Shown one piece after another: positions 6,312 to 57,815 of a DNA stretch of 64,000 nucleotides; position 1 is the first letter of the stretch; each line of letters begins with the position of its first letter. The stretch is from contig CM000429.1 in the NCBI GenBank assembly GCA_000165345.1, forward strand, positions 576,001 through 640,000, written 5' to 3'. Made by a program: the position numbers and the translations under genes. Under the pieces are notes generated by a model. The model searched no databases. It had not been told where the DNA came from and was given only the letters and a program-made list of their open reading frames with translations.

Positions 6312-6384
6312 TAGGAAGAACGGGAATCGAACCCGTGACCTCTTGCGTGTGAGGCAAGCGTCATAACCCCTAGACCATCCTCCT
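6312..6384 (-). tRNA. tRNA-Val (anticodon CAC)
   Basis: 73-nt cloverleaf on the minus strand: acceptor AGGAGGA/TCTTCCT (one G.U pair), D-loop AGGGGTTA, anticodon stem CTTGC/GCAAG with loop CTCACAC, T-arm ACGGG-TTCGATT-CCCGT, discriminator A, followed by a T-run (Pol III terminator). Confidence 0.85.
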
Positions 6385-34572: not shown

Positions 34573-35272
34573 TTAATCAAGCTTCAAGTTTAATGATAAC
34601 TTACCTCCAGGAATAGATCCTGTAATTTCTTCCATAGCTTCTGCATCTAGACTTTCTTGTAACATGGGAAGAATAAATGTAATTCCCAGAGAAACTGCAG
34701 AAATCAAGACTAGAGGGTTTTTCAATAGGGACAATAAGTTTTGAAGTCCACCGTAGTTATCACTTTCTGTTTTTGTCGAGTATAAGGGCTTTATATTCAA
34801 AACATAACTATTTACTATTGCACCTGGTTTTCCTGTTTTAAAATCAAAAACACTCTTTTTACAAACAAGTCTTGTTCCATCCTTAGATTCCTGTTCGGTT
34901 ATTTGTAGAATGTAGGAATCGTATACATATTCTGGTCCCAGAATTCTTAATAGGTATTCTCCTTTTGGTAAATTGTTGCTAAACAATAATTATACATTTT
35001 ATATAAATATGCACAACTTACATTTGAAAATGCCCAGACGAATTGGGATAAATTGGATGTTCTCTCCCGGTCAAATAAATCTGAGTTCTCATTAAAGAAG
35101 ATTCAGGAGCATCTACTTTTCCAAAAATATCCATCTTTTCATCGCAATACACAGTAGAAGTGTAAGAAAGGAATATAAAGCTGATTGAAAAAACAGTGAT
35201 AAGGAAATAATTAAGCTCAGTAGAAACTTACAAAAAGTACAAAAGAATAATTCTTGTCAAATTATTATTCAT
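34573..35272 (-). CDS. EMC7: ER membrane protein complex subunit 7-like (EMC7); join(complement(35232..35272),complement(35022..35180),complement(34573..34978)), introns of 51 and 43 nt
   Basis: Exon 1 MNNNLTRIILLYFF (signal/TM); introns GTAAGT...CAATCAG and GTAAGT...TTGTTTAG are in phase; the body GHFQINNLPKGEYLLRILGPEYVYD parallels EMC7's [25 protein letters not shown]; C-terminal TM helix. Confidence 0.65.
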
Positions 35273-35464
35273 TTCAAGAGTGCATAAATTGTGTTTATTA
35301 GTAATTCTTCAAATTTCAATTATTAATTAAAAAAAAAAAAATTTCCCTCCATTTAATTTCCTCACGCTAAAAGAAAAATTTGAGCACATCTTTTATTATT
35401 AGTTCAATATTTAAATCAACTCACAAATATATTTAGTATCATAATATAGTTTTTATATAGATTT

Positions 35465-35896
35465 ATGAGTTCAGGCACGAAAGTTTCTTTTAAAATAATT
35501 CTCGCATCTGATAGAAATAGACCTTACAAGATGTAAGTTATTTATTGTTGATATTTATTGTTAATAAATTGCCAGACTATCAGTACCAGAGGATGCTCCA
35601 TTTACTGCAGTGATTAAGTTTGCATCTGAACAGGTAAGTTTTTTTAAAGGCTCCATTTAGCATAAATTATGATTATTACTCTGAATGGTCAGTTTAAGGT
35701 ATCTTCTGCAACGAGCGCAGTGATAACTTTGGAAGGTGTTGGAATAAATCCAAACAACACTGCAGGACAAATTTTCCTCAAGCATGGGTCAGAGCTACAA
35801 CTAATTCCAAGAGATCGAGTTGGTTGCAGCATCAACTCCAACATTGCTCGCAATACATATGGTAAGGGGAGTCTTTTTTATTCTCCAATTTTTTAA
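35465..35896 (+). CDS. UFM1: Ubiquitin-fold modifier 1 (UFM1); join(35465..35532,35576..35633,35693..35896), introns of 43 and 59 nt
   Basis: [22 protein letters not shown]|[20 protein letters not shown]|[44 protein letters not shown] is almost colinear with human UFM1; followed by a 23-aa C-terminal extension before the TAA. Confidence 0.8.
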
Positions 35897-36049
35897 AATG
35901 CTTCAAATCCATTGACCTATATATTATGTAATTTGAAAGTGGATATAAATAATGAATAATATATAAAGGGGAGAAAAATTAAAACGCTAAAGTATTTTAA
36001 AACTCTAATTATATATAAATGAAAAAGTTATTTAACCCTATCAATATAT

Positions 36050-36571
36050 TTAGTCGCTCAATTTGCCAGAATTTTCTTTAGACAAGTCATCTAGCAAACT
36101 TTTATATTCTTCTAAATGTTGTTTCATCTGATCTAAAAGTTGATTTTTTTCATTCACCTGCGCCTCTAATTCATCACAAATCTGGTGATAGGTTTGTATT
36201 ATTCTGAGCTTCTCCAATATATGGTTCATATTATTATATATTTTAATTATCTTCTTGACTGATGAAGTATCTACAACTCCCTTTCCTGAATTCTCCAAAA
36301 GTTTGAGTATTTCCATTTGAAACATTTCATTTAACATCATCAACTCCGCTGGCAAGTCAACATTGGATTCATTATACAAGATTGTGTCGCTATCTAACGG
36401 ATGAATTGAAATATCCGAAGAGAGCTGAGAGCCAAAGCAAGTAAAGGGCCCCTCAATGCAGGGAGGTGGCTTTATTTTTGCTACTTTGTCTTCATGATCA
36501 AAGAGACGGAAGTATGGTGGTGGAGGTGGAAAAGATGAAACTATATTTTGTTGGCCATTTGCATTATCCAT
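36050..36571 (-). CDS. MED7: Mediator complex subunit 7
   Basis: FPPPPPYFRLF...KPPP...FGSQ...I.PLDS motif pattern, and a C-terminal helical region matching MED7. Confidence 0.7.
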   Translation of the reverse strand: MDNANGQQNIVSSFPPPPPYFRLFDHEDKVAKIKPPPCIEGPFTCFGSQLSSDISIHPLDSDTILYNESNVDLPAELMMLNEMFQMEILKLLENSGKGVVDTSSVKKIIKIYNNMNHILEKLRIIQTYHQICDELEAQVNEKNQLLDQMKQHLEEYKSLLDDLSKENSGKLSD

Positions 36572-36626
36572 AGATAAGAATTTTTCGCGAATAATTGCAA
36601 TTGGTCAAATATAATTAATTTTCGAA

Positions 36627-49110: not shown

Positions 49111-50148
49111 ATGAACAATTTAAGAAATATATCAAAAAGTGGTATTGGGTATAGTTTTTGTCGCTCGTTAGTCAGGAAAACACATAATTTGTTTGGATTC
49201 AAATTTTTGAATATTGGCATTAAGAATCAAATTAATCTTGCAAGAGCAGCTAGGTTTAATTCAACCATTAAAGACTCGAACACTGGTGAAAATAACAAAT
49301 ACGTTTACTTTGGGGATCGTATTGTGGACAAAGATACTAAAAGGAAGCTAATTGAACAGGTTTTTAGCTCAGTTTCGAATAAATATGATTTAATGAATGA
49401 TTTGATGAGTCTTGGATTACATAGGTGTTGGAAGGACATATTTGTAGAGAATATCATTTCTCCTGAATCATTTTTGAGAATAAAAAGAGAGAAAGACGAA
49501 GATTTCTCAAATGTAACTATTTTGGATGTTGCTGGAGGAACAGGAGATGTTTCTTTTAGGATTATTGATAAGTTCAGAAAAGATAATATTGAGGTTTTAC
49601 CAAATATTATAGTTGTCGATTCTAATAATGAAATGATTGAGCAAGGACAGCTAAAATCAATTGAAAAAGGAGACTGCAGCATTATTTGGATTAAAGATGA
49701 TGGAGAACAACTTAGTCAAATTCCTAGTAACAGTGTAGATGTTGTTGCGATATCGTTTGGAATTCGCAACTTTACAAATATTGAAAAAGGCCTCAAATCA
49801 TTCTATAGGGTACTAAAACCTGGGGGAAGATTTCTATGTTTAGAGTTCAGCAAAGTCAATAATCCTTTAATTTCTTCTATTTACCAACTTTACTCATCCA
49901 TTGCAATTCCTAGTCTTGGTGAATTTGTTGCAGGAGATAGAGAATCATATAATTATCTAGTAAGTTAAATGTTAAGTACTTCACTTTTTCATGACTAAAA
50001 TAAATAGGTTGAAAGCATACGCCGATTTCCAGATGCTGAGAAGTTTGCTCAACTTTTAATTAATGCTAATTTTACAGATGTAAAGTCTTCAACTATGACC
50101 TTTGGAGTAGTTGCAATACATAGCGGATTCAAGCCAACAGATGCTTAG
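49111..50148 (+). CDS. COQ5: 2-methoxy-6-polyprenyl-1,4-benzoquinol methylase COQ5/UbiE; join(49111..49959,50008..50148), 48-nt intron
   Basis: YDLMNDLMSLGLHRCWK and VAGGTGD motifs; the donor CTA|GTAAGT and acceptor AAATAG|GTT restore the conserved C-terminus YNYLVESIRRFP...VVAIHSGFK; the N-terminus looks like a mitochondrial presequence. Confidence 0.85.
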
Positions 50149-50466: not shown

Positions 50467-52545
50467 ATGAATTTCATTTTTGGAGCAATTTTGTGGGGCT
50501 TGTTAATCTTTCCTGCTCTCTTCCAAAAATGTCATGGTAATAAATATAGAACAAATTTGGACAAATATACTAAAATTTATCAGTACCAAACAAGCGAAAT
50601 TGAGCTTTATTTTCCAAATAATGATATTTTTGAGAATGAAAGAGAAAATTCCCAGGCTAAAGAGGAAATAAAAGATTTAAAGTCAACTAAAGTGAGCGAT
50701 ATTAGGTATAGCTTCATGAAATTAGGTAGAAAAGAATTTCTATGTGGTTTTGAGGGATATGGAAAAAATGATAGCCTTAATTTATCAGAAGAGACTAATC
50801 AATCTTGGGATAATATGAATTCTAAAGTCAAGAACTATTTAAAGAAGAGTAAAATTTCATGGTTAATGGAACGGTGCTTCATATATACAAAGAAGAAAGA
50901 TATTAATAATGGTATTCATGTCCAAGTAGATAACTTTGAAATATGTGTCGGTGTTTCAGTTCGTCACAAAAGACAGATAATTGACAAAGAAACCAGTGAC
51001 AATATATTAGAAAGTCAGTTCAATATTGTAGGCGATTATAAACCTACGGAAGACACATTTTATGAAAATGGAACAATCATCCAGTACTATAACCCAGCGA
51101 TAGAAAACTTAAAAGGAGATTCTGGGTATTCGGCTTCAATTGAGTTTAAATGTAGCTATAATAAATCAGGAATCAGTCAAGTAACAGAAGATGTTAACAA
51201 AGAATTTAAACCTGTGATTAAAGTAGACTTTTTGTCCCCTTCATTTTGTGATTGGAGGGTAGACGAAAGCAAGAATATTACATCTTTGCATAAGCTGGAA
51301 TCTTTACTGCTACCATTAGAAAACAGATGCCAAAACTTTACGGATTCAAGATTTTGGAATTATGAGCTTTGTAATCTGTACGTCGTATCTCAGTTCAAAA
51401 AAGACTCCTCAACTCAAGAATTGAGACTATTCAATTTAGGAATTCATCCAAACACTGCTCAAATACTAAATATAACAGATGATTTAGAAGAATATTTATC
51501 TAAGAATTTAATTTCAAATATAGTTAATACAATAAAGCCTGGTAGAGTTTCTTTACTTGAAAATATAACAACAAAAATCGAACCAAGAAACATAAACGAG
51601 TTGATTTCTGGAAAATATGTGCATAGTAAATATGTTATCACAGTAATGTTGTTAAATGGAACTTATTGTCCAGAAAATAATCAGAAAAGAAGTATTAAAT
51701 TAGTATTCGAATGCCCTGATAACTTTGAGAGTATCTCTGATTATTTTAGAATAGTAAATGTTATTGAGGATTCAACATGTAATTATGAAATGTTAATCAT
51801 TTCCCCCGTAATCTGCTCTCACCCTTTGTTGATGCCTCCTCCAATTTATAAGCACGGGAGAGTCAAATGCATACCTAAGAATTTGATTATTAACAAATTA
51901 ATAGAGGATGAATCTACAGAGCATTTGTTTGAATCTCAAGAAACAAGAAGTGAAAGTGGACTAGTTAGTATTAGTCAAATTGGCAATCAATTTGAAGCAG
52001 TTAATATAGAATATATAGATTCGACCAAGAATGGGAGCAGTACTCAACATTTCTTTACTCTGAGCGATTCTCCCAGGATTAGGAGCTCTAACCTAACTAG
52101 TCCAAAATTTTTGGTTGGTCAGATTGTGCAACATTTATGGTGGAACTATTATGGCGTCGTAGTTGGGTGGGATTGGGAACTAAATGCACCAAAACAATGG
52201 GCAGACAACATTTATCAAAAATACCCTCCAGAATCAAGGAAAAGGCCTCACTATTTGTTACTAGTTCATCAGGAAGAAACTCTCTTCAACAATTCATCGC
52301 CAATTGAATCTATTCCATCAAATCTCACACACACGTACATTCCAGAAATTGCATTAAAGCACGTTCCCAACTTAGATTCTGACAATCATTTCTCCAACAA
52401 AGATATCATTATTAATAAATATCTAAACACGTACTTCTCCTATTGGTCAGAAATCCATCAGAGATTTATACCTAACACAAATAGTACCCTTTGGAGAATT
52501 TACCCGAATGATTTCGACAAACTAAACGAAAGGGACGAACTATAG
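50467..52545 (+). CDS. Secreted/ER-lumenal protein with MRH (mannose-6-phosphate receptor homology) lectin-like domains and a C-terminal HspQ/YccV-like domain
   Basis: Signal peptide MNFIFGAILWGLLIFPALF; cysteine spacing typical of MRH domains (e.g. YCPENNQKRSIKLVFECPDN...STCNYEMLIISPVICSHP); C-terminal GQIVQHLWWNYYGVVVGWDWE...PHYLLLV resembles the HspQ/YccV hemimethylated-DNA-binding fold. Confidence 0.55.
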   Translation: MNFIFGAILWGLLIFPALFQKCHGNKYRTNLDKYTKIYQYQTSEIELYFPNNDIFENERENSQAKEEIKDLKSTKVSDIRYSFMKLGRKEFLCGFEGYGKNDSLNLSEETNQSWDNMNSKVKNYLKKSKISWLMERCFIYTKKKDINNGIHVQVDNFEICVGVSVRHKRQIIDKETSDNILESQFNIVGDYKPTEDTFYENGTIIQYYNPAIENLKGDSGYSASIEFKCSYNKSGISQVTEDVNKEFKPVIKVDFLSPSFCDWRVDESKNITSLHKLESLLLPLENRCQNFTDSRFWNYELCNLYVVSQFKKDSSTQELRLFNLGIHPNTAQILNITDDLEEYLSKNLISNIVNTIKPGRVSLLENITTKIEPRNINELISGKYVHSKYVITVMLLNGTYCPENNQKRSIKLVFECPDNFESISDYFRIVNVIEDSTCNYEMLIISPVICSHPLLMPPPIYKHGRVKCIPKNLIINKLIEDESTEHLFESQETRSESGLVSISQIGNQFEAVNIEYIDSTKNGSSTQHFFTLSDSPRIRSSNLTSPKFLVGQIVQHLWWNYYGVVVGWDWELNAPKQWADNIYQKYPPESRKRPHYLLLVHQEETLFNNSSPIESIPSNLTHTYIPEIALKHVPNLDSDNHFSNKDIIINKYLNTYFSYWSEIHQRFIPNTNSTLWRIYPNDFDKLNERDEL

Positions 52546-54572
52546 ATACATTTATCGATATCTCACATTTAAAAATTAGAAATTTGTTAGTTATAGCTAC
52601 TTATAGTTTACATAATTACTTAGTAAAACACAATTAATTTTAGATTTAATCTTGTTTTCCTCATCATTTAAAATTAAAAAAATTATACGTAAGACTCTCC
52701 CCCGCCACACATGGCGCCATAACGTCACGTCGAGCCACGCAATTTTTTTGCAAATTGAGATTGAATCTAATCAGTATTAATCTGTCTTTCATTACTTGAA
52801 ATTCAGAATTCAGTAAGCATATTGCTCATTTTCAGTGGACCTTTAGGATTAAAGCTTTTCGTTTTCTGATGTGAATGGCACTATCATGGTAATTATAACG
52901 CTTCGATTGGCTCTATCATGGTAATATTTCTTTGATGGCTGTACAATGATTTGATTTGTATCATGGAAGATATTTGCATTTGATTTTTGTCACTAATGAA
53001 CGATGATAGTATTGAATTATGTGTTTTATGAGTGGAAAAACCACTCCAACTCTTTCGGAATTTCCTTATGAGTTTCTTTTATTATCTGGTTGTTAAAAGG
53101 GTGAACTATTTTTTTTCAGGTAATATCGATGACTTGCATAGTTTGATTATCTTCATGGTTTTTCATATCTTTATCAACTGGACCTGTTTTTGCCTAACTC
53201 TAGAACATATTTTTCTACTATTATCATCAGTATTCAGCAGTGACAAACCTGATTAACAAGCTATTGGTAAACTAAGGTAAATCATTGGTTGAGAATGAAA
53301 ATATCCTTTCTTGACTTAGTGGATCAATCTTCCTTGTGACTTGCCAGAGTTCCCCTAATATTTATTGTCAGATGAACGTGTATCAAATGACCTCTTATAT
53401 GTGAATTTATCCCTGAATTCCTAATCTTAGTGAGTATTATTCTAATTGGCCTTTGAACAGTATTTATATTACTGGTAGACCTTTTAAGGTTGCTTCTGTC
53501 TCAAATTCCATGACATCTCTTACCTGAGCTTATATATATCTTTTCCAAAGCCTTTTAAAAAAAAAATTGTTTGAAGTTTCAGATATCTTGAAAATATTAC
53601 GATCAATTTATCCATGTTTATTGTTAAAGAGCATTAGTTCCTTGGGATAGAATTTTGGTGTATTATGATTGAGTGTATATAGAGTTGCTTTATCCATACT
53701 TGGTTCCGGTAATACTTAACTAGATAATATTATTTGAACTATTTTATCTGGCAGTCACATGGAAGGGGTACTTGTACATTGTTGTGATCATTCCATTTTC
53801 TTGGCTTGTTATTTCAAAAGTATCGTCACTGCTGGATATATGATATACAATATTGAAAACAATTCGTCCATTTATGTATTTTTAATCACCAAACATTCAT
53901 TTGGTTTATACATTGTGCTACGCCATCATCCGTTATTCCAATCTCTATCTTATTTGAAATACAACAATTCAACGTTTTCCAACAAGCTTGTCTTATTTTT
54001 CTTTTTAAACTTTTAATTATTGCCATTAGATGAAGATATGTTGTATCATTGGATTTTGTGTATTCAAAGCAATATACATAATATTTGTAAAATAGTAATT
54101 TTATACAGGCTGAATTGTTTTTCTTTTAGGGATAAAGAAGATAACTTATTTCGAGAAAAGAAGATTTCTTTATATTGAAGATTTCAAGGATGCCAATTGA
54201 TAACGAACTCAAGCGGTTCCGAGCTATGAATAACTAAGATTTATAAGGATGTCTGTAATGCATCTCTTAGCATACTAATTCAGGTTATGTTTCAAGTTTA
54301 ACGCTTTTCCTAATGTTTTGGTTAGGTTATAAAGTCAATTTTTGAAGAAAAAGAGGAAAGAGGCTTTAATCTATTGTGGCGCAAATTTGCTCGAGATTAT
54401 GGGAGATGATAATTGATGTTCTAATGGCAGTGTTTTCAACATAATTAGAGGGATGTGTAGATAACTGGCGGTGCTTGATGATGAGAAATTTAGATTGTGT
54501 TCGGATGTCGAATCCGCTTCGAATTTGTTTCATTAGGTGAGGTTTAGTTGCAAGGTCATGTTTATGCATGTT

Positions 54573-54586
54573 GTGCGCGCCAAAAG
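54573..54586. promoter_or_regulatory. E2F-like site (TTTTGGCGCGCAC on the minus strand), about 290 bp upstream of UTP21
   Basis: As above; located in the ORF-free GC-richer island. Confidence 0.35.
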
Positions 54587-54869
54587 TTGCTGCCATCCTC
54601 TAAGGTTGTATGAATGCCTTTCATCGTATTAGTCGCTTATTCTGAATGAGGTTTAGTGACTTTTTGCGAAAAAAGTCTTAATTTCGGAGTTAGGGTCATT
54701 AGTTCTTTTTAATTTTCTGTTTTTTTCCGATTATGTCTGAGCGGTGCCTCTGCTGTTCTGGTTAAGGATATACGCGGGAGACGGCCTTGTATTAGGCGGC
54801 AAGTGTGGTCTATAGTAATTTTTGACAATTGGTTGTAATGAGACTGATAATTGAATTAAATGAAATAAC

Positions 54870-57815
54870 ATGGAGGTGAACTCGAGTAATTTGTTAGTTC
54901 CTTTACATAGTATAGGATTTGTGACAGATGAAGTTCCATTTGCATTGGAGAAGCTAGGAGATGAATATTTTATTGTAGTTGCAACAGGTCACTACTATCA
55001 AGTATATGACTTGGACCAACTAAGGATTAAATATATATCTCAGAGGATGGAGAATAGAATAGAGAATTTGGTTACAAAGTATGAGACTGTTTATGTATCT
55101 ATGGGCAATAAAATTGTTGGTTATAATAGGCATGAAAAAACGTTTGAGATTGAACATAACTCAAGAGTAAAAGGAATGCTTGTTCTTGGTGAATTATTGA
55201 TTTCATGGGATAAGGAGACCATAATAGTTTCTGAGATAGATTCTAATAGACTAAAATGTGAAATTCTGGTTGATATGGATGTCTCCGAAGAAATTGTCAC
55301 AATTTTACATCCAGTCACATATTTGAACAAGGTATTAGTAGTTACATCGAAAGGATGTGAACTTTGGAATATTAATACTAAAAAAATGATACATAGATTT
55401 TCTTCAATACAAGTTGTTTTAAATGCTTCCAAAAGTATGAAGAATAAAATTGATAATAACGATAAGCAGAAAATAATTACTGCAGTAGCAAGCTCTCATC
55501 CAGATATAGTTGGGATTGGAACTCAAAATGGGATGGTGTATACACTAGATATTGCAAATGATATTATTTTACTTTCTCTCGAGCATATGCCTGAGCAGAA
55601 AGGGGTGAGAAGTGTAAGCTTTTGCTCTGAAAAGGCCATTTTGATTTCAGGTTGTGAAAATGGAGATATTGTACTATGGGATTTAGAAAATGCACGAGTT
55701 TTAAGTATATTAGACTCTGCTCATGAATCTGAGGTTGTTAAAGTTCAGTTTGTTCCAGGTGTTTTAATGTTTATTACCTCCGGTAAAGATAATGCACTAT
55801 TGGAATTTGTTATTGATAACCAAAATTCTCCACCTAGAGAACTTAGATCTAGGAGAGGGCACTTAAGCTCAATAATTAAAACACAGTTCTATAATGCTCT
55901 TCCAGAAAAAAGTAGAGACTTACTTTGTATTAGTAACTTTAGGAATTGTGGTTATCTTGGAAAAACATCTACAATACAACAACATCAAAATCGCATTTTT
56001 TCGCAAAACTCTCTTAAAAAGAAGTTTAATGAAAAGTATCAATTCCCCTTTAGCAGGTTACCACCTATAATAGATTTCTCATTTGCAGAATCTAGGCATT
56101 TTGACTGGCCAAATATAGTAACTATTCATCAAGGAATGCATGAAGTATTTGTTTGGAGTGGGCATAACTTTGCATTAACTCCAAATTTAATAACATTAGA
56201 GAACGTCCAAAGGCTTGACAAAAATAAGCAATCTAAGAGTAATCAATCCCAAAATTTTGTATCGCATGGTCTAACAGTTAAAAGAAAATCTCTACCTTTA
56301 GCAAAAGCCATCTCAGTTTCAGGTTGTGGAAACTATGTAGTTGTTGGATACTCTGATGGATCCATACATAGATTTAATCTACAATCATGTATTCATTCTG
56401 GGCAATTAATTCTTCCTGATAATTCTGAAATTAATCAACCAACTATGGAAATTCTTTCAATACATATTTCACACTCCACAATGGTTCTTTGCATTATAAG
56501 AGATTTGGATAATTACTACTTATCAACATGGTCGGTTAAGCCTATTAAATATTTAAATACCAAGATTATCCTAAGTAGAGCTTCTGTTCTATCAAATATA
56601 GAGACTCAAGAAGTGTTTATTTCCAAGCTGTTTGGATATTTATTAGCTTTAGGATTATCCGATGGCAGGGTTATTCTTTATGACTTCCAATCACAAGTAA
56701 TTTCTAGAGAATTCCAATGTGGTCATCATCATATTTTAGATATTACAATGTCTTCAGACAATAGGTGGATTGCAGTTTCAACAAAAAATAGTGAACTTTT
56801 TATATTTGATATAATTTCTTCAAACCTTTTGGATTGGGTCAAATTCAAATCTCCAGCTATTTGCTGTGTATTTGATCATTCAGATGCATTTCTAATAACA
56901 TCTCATGATCAATCAAAGGGATTACTTTCTGTTTGGGCAAATAAACATGCCTTAAGCATTTCAGTTGGAATTGAAGGTTTATCAAATCCTCCATCTGAAC
57001 CTTATTATATAGATGATCCTCCTAATAGAGTACTTTACTTTGAAGATTCAGACCAAACTTTAAAGAATGATAAAGATTCTACAAAGGCATCAGAATCTAG
57101 TGACAATACAAATTTGTCTGACTTTGATCTTCCTGAAAATGGAGACTATGATCCTTCCTTAATAGACAGAAAACTAATGTCATTTTCTGGAATTCCATTT
57201 TCAACTCTTCAAGCAATCTTATTTATTGATGAAATTAAAGAAAGAAACAAACCAATTGAACCACCAAAGAAACCAGAGAGTGCTCCATTTTTTCTACCAA
57301 ATACTACAGAATTCTCATCTACAATTCATAAACCCTCGAAAGAAAGCGATAATGAGGAAATAATCTCAAAAGATTTGGCAGAATCTAAAGATCCAAGTTC
57401 ATCACTTAAGACTGAGCTCCAAGAACTTTTAGAAAAAACTTCCTTGGATGATTCAGACTCTTTTTTAAGTATTACTAAGCTTTTAAAATCCAAATCTCCT
57501 TCTGGTGTAAATCTTCTTTTGAGACAATTAGGGCCTCTCAGTGGAGGATCTTTCCAAGAAATTGCTCAAATGATACATTACTTTAATATATCTATATCAA
57601 AAAGAACAGATTCTGAGTTGATTCAAACATACCTAAATATCTTTCTTAAAATTCATTCCACAACAATACTGGAAAATGAATCGGAATTTAAAGATTTTCA
57701 AGATATTATTCTTAAGCTTAATAACCTTGTAAAGAGTGACTGGGACTCTCTCCAAGACAGGCTTCATAATATCTCATGTTTTCTAAAGTTTGTTACAAAT
57801 ATTCAAATGGATTAA
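54870..57815 (+). CDS. UTP21: U3 snoRNP protein UTP21/WDR36 (WD40 repeats plus C-terminal Utp21 domain)
   Basis: The N-terminus aligns with yeast Utp21 (PFA.G..G..FYIV..G...QIYD); RELRSRRGH; EPPKKPESAPFFLP (Utp21 EAPKKSEKLPFFLQ). Confidence 0.8.
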   Translation: MEVNSSNLLVPLHSIGFVTDEVPFALEKLGDEYFIVVATGHYYQVYDLDQLRIKYISQRMENRIENLVTKYETVYVSMGNKIVGYNRHEKTFEIEHNSRVKGMLVLGELLISWDKETIIVSEIDSNRLKCEILVDMDVSEEIVTILHPVTYLNKVLVVTSKGCELWNINTKKMIHRFSSIQVVLNASKSMKNKIDNNDKQKIITAVASSHPDIVGIGTQNGMVYTLDIANDIILLSLEHMPEQKGVRSVSFCSEKAILISGCENGDIVLWDLENARVLSILDSAHESEVVKVQFVPGVLMFITSGKDNALLEFVIDNQNSPPRELRSRRGHLSSIIKTQFYNALPEKSRDLLCISNFRNCGYLGKTSTIQQHQNRIFSQNSLKKKFNEKYQFPFSRLPPIIDFSFAESRHFDWPNIVTIHQGMHEVFVWSGHNFALTPNLITLENVQRLDKNKQSKSNQSQNFVSHGLTVKRKSLPLAKAISVSGCGNYVVVGYSDGSIHRFNLQSCIHSGQLILPDNSEINQPTMEILSIHISHSTMVLCIIRDLDNYYLSTWSVKPIKYLNTKIILSRASVLSNIETQEVFISKLFGYLLALGLSDGRVILYDFQSQVISREFQCGHHHILDITMSSDNRWIAVSTKNSELFIFDIISSNLLDWVKFKSPAICCVFDHSDAFLITSHDQSKGLLSVWANKHALSISVGIEGLSNPPSEPYYIDDPPNRVLYFEDSDQTLKNDKDSTKASESSDNTNLSDFDLPENGDYDPSLIDRKLMSFSGIPFSTLQAILFIDEIKERNKPIEPPKKPESAPFFLPNTTEFSSTIHKPSKESDNEEIISKDLAESKDPSSSLKTELQELLEKTSLDDSDSFLSITKLLKSKSPSGVNLLLRQLGPLSGGSFQEIAQMIHYFNISISKRTDSELIQTYLNIFLKIHSTTILENESEFKDFQDIILKLNNLVKSDWDSLQDRLHNISCFLKFVTNIQMD

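Follow-up and report, generated by a model that had tools for sequence, protein, structure and literature searches.

We propose that the largest gap without open reading frames (ORFs) in this 64,000-nucleotide stretch of Cryptosporidium parvum chromosome 1 (the window), at positions 52546-54869 (2324 nt), is a gene for a conserved, structured and unclassified long non-coding RNA (lncRNA) on the + strand, whose folded core has been kept across most of the genus. We put the probability of this reading at roughly 0.7. The earlier note, made from the letters of this DNA, had suggested in general terms a structured non-coding RNA locus and not a protein gene, and two findings support this idea here: the sequence is conserved although no reading frame is, and long-range helices covary. 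The second-largest ORF-free gap of the window measures 1063 nt, and the mean intergenic distance in the C. parvum genome is 504 bp (PMC7840661). The Cryptosporidium genome is among the most compact eukaryotic genomes, so that retaining 2 kb of conserved non-coding sequence comes at a high cost. The gap lies between two protein genes:

50467-52545, + strand: YccV-like/PRKCSH-domain (YccV/MRH) gene, upstream flank of the gap
54870-57815, + strand: UTP21/WDR36, downstream flank of the gap

Syntenic loci were taken through the UTP21 orthologues of C. hominis, chipmunk genotype I, C. ubiquitum, C. canis, C. felis, C. bovis, C. ryanae, C. muris, and L014 (Logan SRR31860986). The same two flanking genes, with an ORF-free gap between them, were found in all nine further Cryptosporidium loci (ten genomes with C. 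parvum), and the gap was 2.1-2.7 kb long except in C. muris (1.3 kb). The UTP21 protein of the window is matched exactly in C. parvum assemblies (e.g., CP044422.1) and is 98% identical to the C. hominis protein. In L014, UTP21 is 73% identical to that of C. parvum, and the syntenic gap is 2.69 kb long with 40% GC and larger insertions within the RNA.

Protein coding is absent from the gap by several measures. As had been noticed earlier, 52546-54869 holds no ORF of more than 85 codons, with ATG, GTG, and TTG all allowed as starts. The longest stop-free stretch is 92 codons, compared with a mean of 83 (standard deviation 17) in shuffled sequence, and ORF lengths in the gap fit shuffled sequence in every species compared. 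Cross-species alignments of the gap show many indels whose length is not divisible by three. No frame was conserved between species, for spliced genes as well, and there was no bias toward synonymous substitutions. A six-frame tblastn search for hidden exons was noisy, and matched only nucleotide-conserved blocks, in all frames, with nothing in distant species. Two small ORFs of the gap are annotated as genes:

54366-54596, - strand: 76-codon ORF, '13 kDa membrane protein subunit' (cgd1_2880 / CPATCC_0036420 / cpbgf_1002887), probably untranslated
53759-54016, + strand: 85-codon ORF (CPATCC_0036430 / cpbgf_1002880), frame not conserved

If the current annotation were right, these would be two small, fast-evolving, species-specific proteins of 76 and 85 aa. 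They have entries in GenBank, CryptoDB, and UniProt, and an antigen-type name that goes back to a 1990s sporozoite cDNA. However, we regard this as very unlikely, because the ORFs are no longer than expected at random and their frames are not conserved. Between C. parvum and C. hominis, 11 codons of the 76-codon ORF differ nonsynonymously and 1 synonymously, and its ATG is TTG in C. hominis. This frame is gone in the chipmunk genotype and beyond, and the conserved parts of the gap fall outside it. The 85-codon frame shifts among C. parvum, C. hominis, the chipmunk genotype, and C. ubiquitum, and the annotated frames are kept no further than parvum, hominis, and tyzzeri. The 119-aa product of the sporozoite cDNA (AAB32917.1) was placed on the - strand between 54725 and 54390, where the genomic frame beneath it is interrupted by stop codons. 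The EFGTR residues at the start of this deposited product are presumably encoded by a cloning adaptor. Both annotated gene models are listed as species-specific singletons, for which not even C. meleagridis has an ortholog (PMC11655656 Table 5). The dN/dS ratio (nonsynonymous to synonymous substitution rate) of more than 1.1 reported for the '13 kDa membrane protein' gene (PMC4637869) fits neutral, non-coding evolution.

In the CpBGF and IOWA-ATCC assemblies, gene models of 1965 nt (+ strand) and 2164 nt (- strand) cover nearly the whole gap. The BGF coordinates were transferred to the window via cpbgf_1002800 and the cDNA end (PMC11655656 Table 5), which places the + model at about 52757-54721, with a right end that may lie as much as 90 nt beyond this. 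The antisense model falls at about 52565-54728. The annotated genes cgd1_2880 and cpbgf_1002880 look like artefactual ORFs on antisense and sense transcripts of about 2 kb. RNA-derived Logan contigs were sought through the 85-aa ORF, and only genome assemblies matched; no mention of the Cdg1_FLc transcripts was found in the literature.

Part of the gap is under selection at the sequence level. The alignable part is its 5' two-thirds, about 52700-54130 (BLASTN, MAFFT), and not the GC-richer island at the 3' end that the earlier note had emphasized. The 4-fold degenerate sites of UTP21 were used as the neutral yardstick, with C. parvum as the reference. Identity at these sites was 71% for the chipmunk genotype and 68% for C. 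ubiquitum, and 34%, 38%, and 34% for C. canis, C. felis, and L014, the last three comparisons being saturated (random expectation 37%). Over 52860-53350 in the core, identity was 85%, 79%, 61%, 50%, and 49% for the same five in turn. Over 54131-54720 it was 58% for the chipmunk genotype, 50% for C. ubiquitum, and 28% for C. canis. The island is therefore the least conserved part of the gap, evolving at or below the neutral level of identity, and it is not the structured core. The constrained stretch runs from about 52860 to 54130 on the + strand, and the following elements were distinguished in it:

52757-54131, + strand: conserved core of the lncRNA, about 1.37 kb, its 5' limit presumed from the CpBGF model and its 3' limit set by the collapse of conservation just past CUUUUAGG
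52873-52925, + strand: two tandem 21-nt units GA(A/T)TGGC(A/T)CTATCATGGTAAT, starting at 52873 and 52905, 32 nt apart
52985-53250, + strand: 5' domain with the best-conserved blocks (82-88% of positions identical across 4 species) and a predicted long irregular stem
54123-54131, + strand: CUUUUAGG after a U-rich tract, recognisable in all species examined including C. muris (also in L009 at about 5190 and L011 at about 5775)

The 21-nt units occur only at this locus within the window, and both are retained in C. parvum, C. hominis, the chipmunk genotype, C. ubiquitum, C. canis, and C. felis; a third, degenerate copy lies at 52955-52968. The direct repeats listed in the earlier note are thus real and conserved, with TATCATGG at 52882, 52914, and 52959, but two of the positions given for them, 52871 and 52903, correspond to the starts of the 21-nt units (52873 and 52905). 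The TATCATGG repeats belong to the RNA. At the other end of the core, CUUUUAGG varies to UUGUAGG in C. canis and UUUUAAG in C. felis, and, judged by its sequence and its place after a U-tract, resembles a 3' splice site or an Sm-like site. An nhmmer search with the core against C. bovis, C. ryanae, and C. muris gave marginal matches only (E about 1.5), which were positionally consistent.

Long-range base pairing is the second line of evidence for an RNA gene. RNAalifold was applied to the whole 1.4 kb in a 6-species alignment and returned nested helices spanning 400-600 nt, with a consensus energy of -277 kcal/mol on the + strand and -214 kcal/mol on the - strand. The best-supported long-range helices are as follows:

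53234-53246 (UCAGCAGUGACAA) with 53823-53835, + strand: helix H1
53254-53263 (UAACAAGCUA) with 53802-53811, + strand: helix H2
53328-53333 with 53761-53766, + strand: helix H3
53335-53340 with 53754-53759, + strand: helix H4
53342-53347 with 53748-53753, + strand: helix H5

In C. canis, C. felis, C. bovis, and C. ryanae, the arms of these helices differ in sequence yet stay complementary. In H1 and H2 (the latter counted in two parts), 97%, 95%, and 96% of cells are paired, with compensatory changes in C. felis, C. bovis, and C. ryanae. In H3-H5, where 88% of cells are paired, both partners have changed in 8 of the 18 pairs. The helices were counted in an 8-species alignment of spliced helix arms, and slid partners and 500 shuffles served as controls. 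Overall, 88.8% of cells pair, compared with 31-47% when the partners are slid, and changes on both sides affect 15 pairs, compared with 2-9 for slid partners; none of the 500 shuffles reached this count, a control which on 8 related sequences does not amount to a probability. Compensatory substitutions thus exceed both controls, as expected of a conserved structured RNA. A separate RNAalifold run on C. bovis and C. ryanae gave the same nested helices from different sequences, with GUCAACCAG and CUGGUUGAC as the equivalent of H3-H5, and an additional 14-bp helix spanning 1100 nt. In minimum free energy (MFE) folds of single sequences, the arms of H1, about 590-700 nt apart, are joined in 7 of 8 species. 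The exception is C. canis, in which the 5' arm of H1 pairs instead with an upstream segment. Two further structured elements of the core are:

52986-52998, + strand: segment A, TTTGTCACTAATG, able to pair with segment B (53234-53246) as an alternative to H1
54057-54078, + strand: conserved hairpin UGUGUAUU-CAAAGC-AAUAUACA, inside the invariant block TGTATTCAAAGCAA

The hairpin containing AUUCAAAG was found in C. bovis and C. ryanae too. Three copies of the UUGUCACU/AGUGACAA motif (A at 52986-52998, B at 53234-53246, and C at 53823-53835) permit mutually exclusive A-B and B-C pairings. The B-C pairing is conserved in eight species, from C. parvum to C. bovis and C. ryanae, while A-B is confined to the parvum/canis/felis group, segment A being absent from C. 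bovis and C. ryanae. On the modelled folds, this alternative could be a conformational switch or a coincidence.

Selection acts on the RNA of the + strand. In H1-H5, one-sided changes produced 43 G.U cells on the + strand and 7 A.C cells, and pairing was 92.9% on the + strand compared with 81.7% on the - strand. The MFE of the core was also further from that of shuffled sequence on the + strand (z = -2.7) than on the - strand (z = -1.9). This G.U bias and the more stable fold identify the selected strand. They also bear on the possibility that the conservation reflects a function of the DNA itself, as in an extended cis-regulatory region, a replication origin, or a centromere-like element. The large ORF-free region, the direct repeats 32 bp apart, and the motif copies in both orientations would suit such an element; however, compensatory changes 400-600 nt apart and strand-asymmetric G.U cells indicate pairing in RNA, and the composition of the gap is not extreme. 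C. parvum has moreover been described as holocentric: its CENH3 sites are reported to be GA-rich and dispersed, and a regional centromere to be lacking (bioRxiv 10.1101/2025.09.30.679541). A DNA-level function is thus highly improbable, and the centromere idea was dropped in view of this CENH3 report.

The 3' third of the gap is organized differently from the core:

54132-54727, both strands: fast-evolving segment including the GC-richer island; it would supply the annotated + transcript with its 3' part and the antisense transcript with its 5' part
54728-54869, both strands: probable bidirectional promoter of UTP21 (+) and the antisense transcript (-), with conserved GCGGGAG, GGCGG.AAGTGTGG, and GTAAT.TTTGAC blocks

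The 54728-54869 block also gave BLAST matches from the L014 species. The 5' end of the antisense transcript probably lies at about 54727, as suggested by the cDNA and the CpBGF model, and such a transcript explains both the island and the old '13 kDa membrane protein' cDNA. The island itself had been described as clearly higher in GC, G/T-rich, and self-complementary. Its G/T-richness is plain (G 119, T 173, C 60, A 109). The GC content of 54400-54860, 38.8%, does exceed that of the window (32.9%) and of intergenic sequence (28.5%), but such a value ranks no higher than the 91st percentile among 461-nt windows, and coding sequence reaches 48%. As for self-complementarity, the + strand RNA of the island folds slightly better than shuffles (z = -2.5), but the - strand RNA does not (z = -0.5).

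The functional product might instead be the antisense transcript, about 2.1 kb long and started at the UTP21 bidirectional promoter, acting as RNA or as a regulator of the flanking genes, with the + strand signals secondary. The sole mapped cDNA is on the - strand (54725 to 54390), CpBGF has the 2164-nt model there, and the helices are complementary on both strands, the - strand also folding better than its shuffles (z = -1.9). However, the 43 G.U cells of the + strand become A.C mismatches on the - strand and only 7 do the reverse, the consensus fold of the - strand is weaker, and the 5' 600 nt of the antisense transcript evolve at or below the neutral level of identity. We therefore consider an antisense product unlikely, and the + strand lncRNA remains our preferred reading.

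A promoter-type block precedes the conserved RNA:

52712-52749, + strand: promoter-proximal block with the TGGCGCCA palindrome (52712-52719), a conserved ACGTC..GTC.A..ACGC block, and a T7 run (52743-52749)

The hexamer GGCGCC occurs at 9 sites in the window where 0.92 would be expected (about 10-fold), and 8 of the 9 are intergenic and beside gene starts. The positions are 6229, 25725, 36631, 38489, 48554, 52713, 61502, and 63786, plus 9485. The site at 52713 has no ORF downstream. TGGCGCCA is exact in C. parvum, C. hominis, the chipmunk genotype, C. ubiquitum, and C. felis, and one base off in C. canis (TGGCGCCT). The block can be aligned in 6 species, and related GCGC..ACGT(C/T)TTGTCTA blocks occupy the corresponding position in C. 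bovis, C. ryanae, and C. muris. In sequence and position, TGGCGCCA corresponds to a C. parvum E2F-type (GGCGCC) promoter, suggesting that the site at 52712 is an E2F-like promoter element of the RNA gene.

This arrangement argues against a long structured 3' untranslated region (UTR) of the YccV/MRH gene, or a 5' leader or intron of UTP21, as the source of the conserved RNA. All three features are on the + strand, the annotated + model stops near the UTP21 start, and CUUUUAGG after its U-tract resembles a 3' splice site. However, the promoter-type TGGCGCCA stands after the upstream stop codon and before the conserved RNA, two assemblies carry separate gene models, no conserved 5' splice site was found in the alignment, and conserved promoter blocks that belong to UTP21 itself lie about 50-100 nt before its ATG. 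A UTR, leader, or intron is thus improbable, to much the same degree as an antisense product.

Small RNAs fit the locus less well still. The locus might be a cluster or host gene of box C/D or H/ACA small nucleolar RNAs (snoRNAs), or encode an RNA polymerase III transcript ending at the T7 run. The T7 run after a GC-rich segment is indeed present, at 52743-52749, but it lies upstream of the conserved RNA and beside the TGGCGCCA promoter-type motif, so that the earlier suggestion of a terminator fails. An RNA polymerase III transcript ends at the first run of T4-6 and has none inside; here the conserved RNA contains a T8 run at 53109-53116, and a T7 run at 54720-54726 falls inside the annotated + model, and these internal runs speak against RNA polymerase III. 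Rfam 15, whose families include snRNAs, RNase P/MRP, SRP, U3, telomerase RNA, and the Plasmodium RUFs, was run over the whole window at gathering thresholds and detected only a tRNA-Val (6312-6384), and over 52400-55000 at E up to 10 it gave only four chance-level matches. The snoRNA reading is encouraged by UGAUGA and CUGA strings and by weak - strand Rfam matches to snR78 and snoR64 (E = 3-7). However, the matches are far below gathering (20 bits vs 45-48), and the boxes are not conserved. The UGAUGA that had been placed at 54463 is at 54476, the sole one on the + strand, and is lost even in the chipmunk genotype, and the - strand candidates at 53224 and 53933 are missing from the chipmunk genotype, C. 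ubiquitum, or C. felis. A small-RNA locus can thus be regarded as highly improbable.

Telomerase RNA was considered as a candidate, prompted by AGGTTTAG twice on the + strand, and dropped since the template is not conserved. The size, the probable RNA polymerase II origin, and the long-range helices would agree with a telomerase RNA as large as that of Plasmodium or yeasts, no Cryptosporidium telomerase RNA was found named in the literature, and CUAAACCU occurs twice on the - strand of C. parvum and C. hominis. However, the telomere repeat is TTTAGG (PMC8848321), and no conserved template for it was found on either strand. No 7-mer of the telomere C-strand repeat was present on the + strand in 9 species, and none on either strand in C. 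canis; telomere-like 8-mers on the - strand occur only in the parvum group, at positions that are not conserved. This identity is accordingly the most improbable of those weighed here. The - strand version of CUUUUAGG, CCUAAAAG or ACCUAAA, agrees with the telomere C-strand over 6-7 nt; this is too short for a telomerase template, and it is broken in C. canis and C. felis.

Several points weigh against the lncRNA reading. Evidence for the + transcript comes from annotated gene models and the G.U strand bias, and the only mapped cDNA is antisense. Twelve motifs of the locus had no match among the C. parvum lncRNA sequences of Li 2021 (roughly 90% of the set), although annotation of the locus as protein-coding may explain its absence there. 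The helices were partly derived from the same sequences on which they were tested, and the limit given above for the shuffle control applies here as well. In the 5' domain (52985-53250), most of the 61 predicted pairs are invariant and 7 show compensatory change, a weak covariation support; because these helices barely vary, covariation neither backs nor refutes them. A sliding RNAalifold scan of 160 nt found little conserved structure, as such a scan misses helices that are long-range. A homologue of the core could not be established in C. muris, and the scaffold function proposed below is purely one that we infer.

If the lncRNA gene is real, TGGCGCCA (E2F-type) at 52712 would drive an RNA polymerase II transcript starting around 52757-52850. 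The annotated + model extends for about 2 kb, to roughly 54720, and only the first 1.3-1.4 kb, up to CUUUUAGG, is under selection. The core forms a multi-domain structure held by the nested helices H1, H2, and H3-H5, as covariation shows, and would be followed by a fast-evolving 3' extension which the antisense RNA from the UTP21 bidirectional promoter would overlap. Because the conserved, unpaired GGCNCUAUCAUGGUAAU units sit in a covarying helical framework, a scaffold role is suggested: strictly conserved unpaired motifs, above all the two tandem GGCNCUAUCAUGGUAAU units, may be presented to proteins by the RNA, which might act as a stable ribonucleoprotein (RNP) and not as a guide or template RNA. 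More specifically, the locus may encode a large structured RNA particular to Cryptosporidium, the core of a new RNP with the A-B/B-C alternative as a possible switch, hidden for 30 years by the '13 kDa membrane protein' annotation. We offer this fuller picture tentatively, and with clearly less confidence than the existence of the RNA gene itself.

Three observations elsewhere in the window may be added. The second-largest ORF-free gap, within 34987-36586, adjoins a 173-aa ORF at 36050-36571 (cpbgf_1002800), another entry among the C. parvum 'species-specific' singletons (PMC11655656), and 34987-36586 may be another mis-annotated or non-coding locus. The COQ5/UbiE methyltransferase gene at 49111-50148 is annotated by NCBI with 329 aa over 1038 nt, and the continuous ORF gives 285 aa, which implies a short intron near the 3' end, rare in Cryptosporidium. 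The tRNA-Val(CAC) at 6312-6384 on the - strand is the sole Rfam or ARAGORN match in the window.

If the lncRNA gene is confirmed, it would represent an orphan family of large structured RNAs in a parasite with few described intergenic lncRNAs. Two "species-specific protein" genes would leave the annotation, one of them having been discussed both as a membrane antigen and as a gene under positive selection, and "singleton" ORFs in Cryptosporidium annotations could more generally mark non-coding RNA genes. The locus would also offer a defined target for genetics and RNP purification.

Among known systems, the nearest comparison is with large structured RNAs that are made by RNA polymerase II and scaffold RNPs, such as the telomerase RNA of Plasmodium (about 2.2 kb) and TLC1 of budding yeast (about 1.2 kb). 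The Cryptosporidium locus differs from telomerase RNAs in having no telomere-complementary template in all species and no Rfam telomerase match; no pseudoknot or template-boundary element was identified either, the template being absent and no pseudoknot search having been made. It resembles the Plasmodium telomerase RNA and TLC1 in its kilobase size, in domains closed by long-range helices, in fast-evolving arms between short conserved cores, and in having been missed or mislabelled by annotation. Li et al. 2021 described 33 long intergenic non-coding RNAs in C. parvum (PMC7840661). The RNA proposed here is like them in its organism, in being an AT-rich intergenic transcript, and in an upstream E2F-like GGCGCC/CCCGCC motif; it differs in combining conservation across most of the genus with covarying long-range helices, features not described for those RNAs. 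The annotated cgd1_2880/cpbgf_1002880 models describe this same locus, but have filed it as protein-coding and species-specific.

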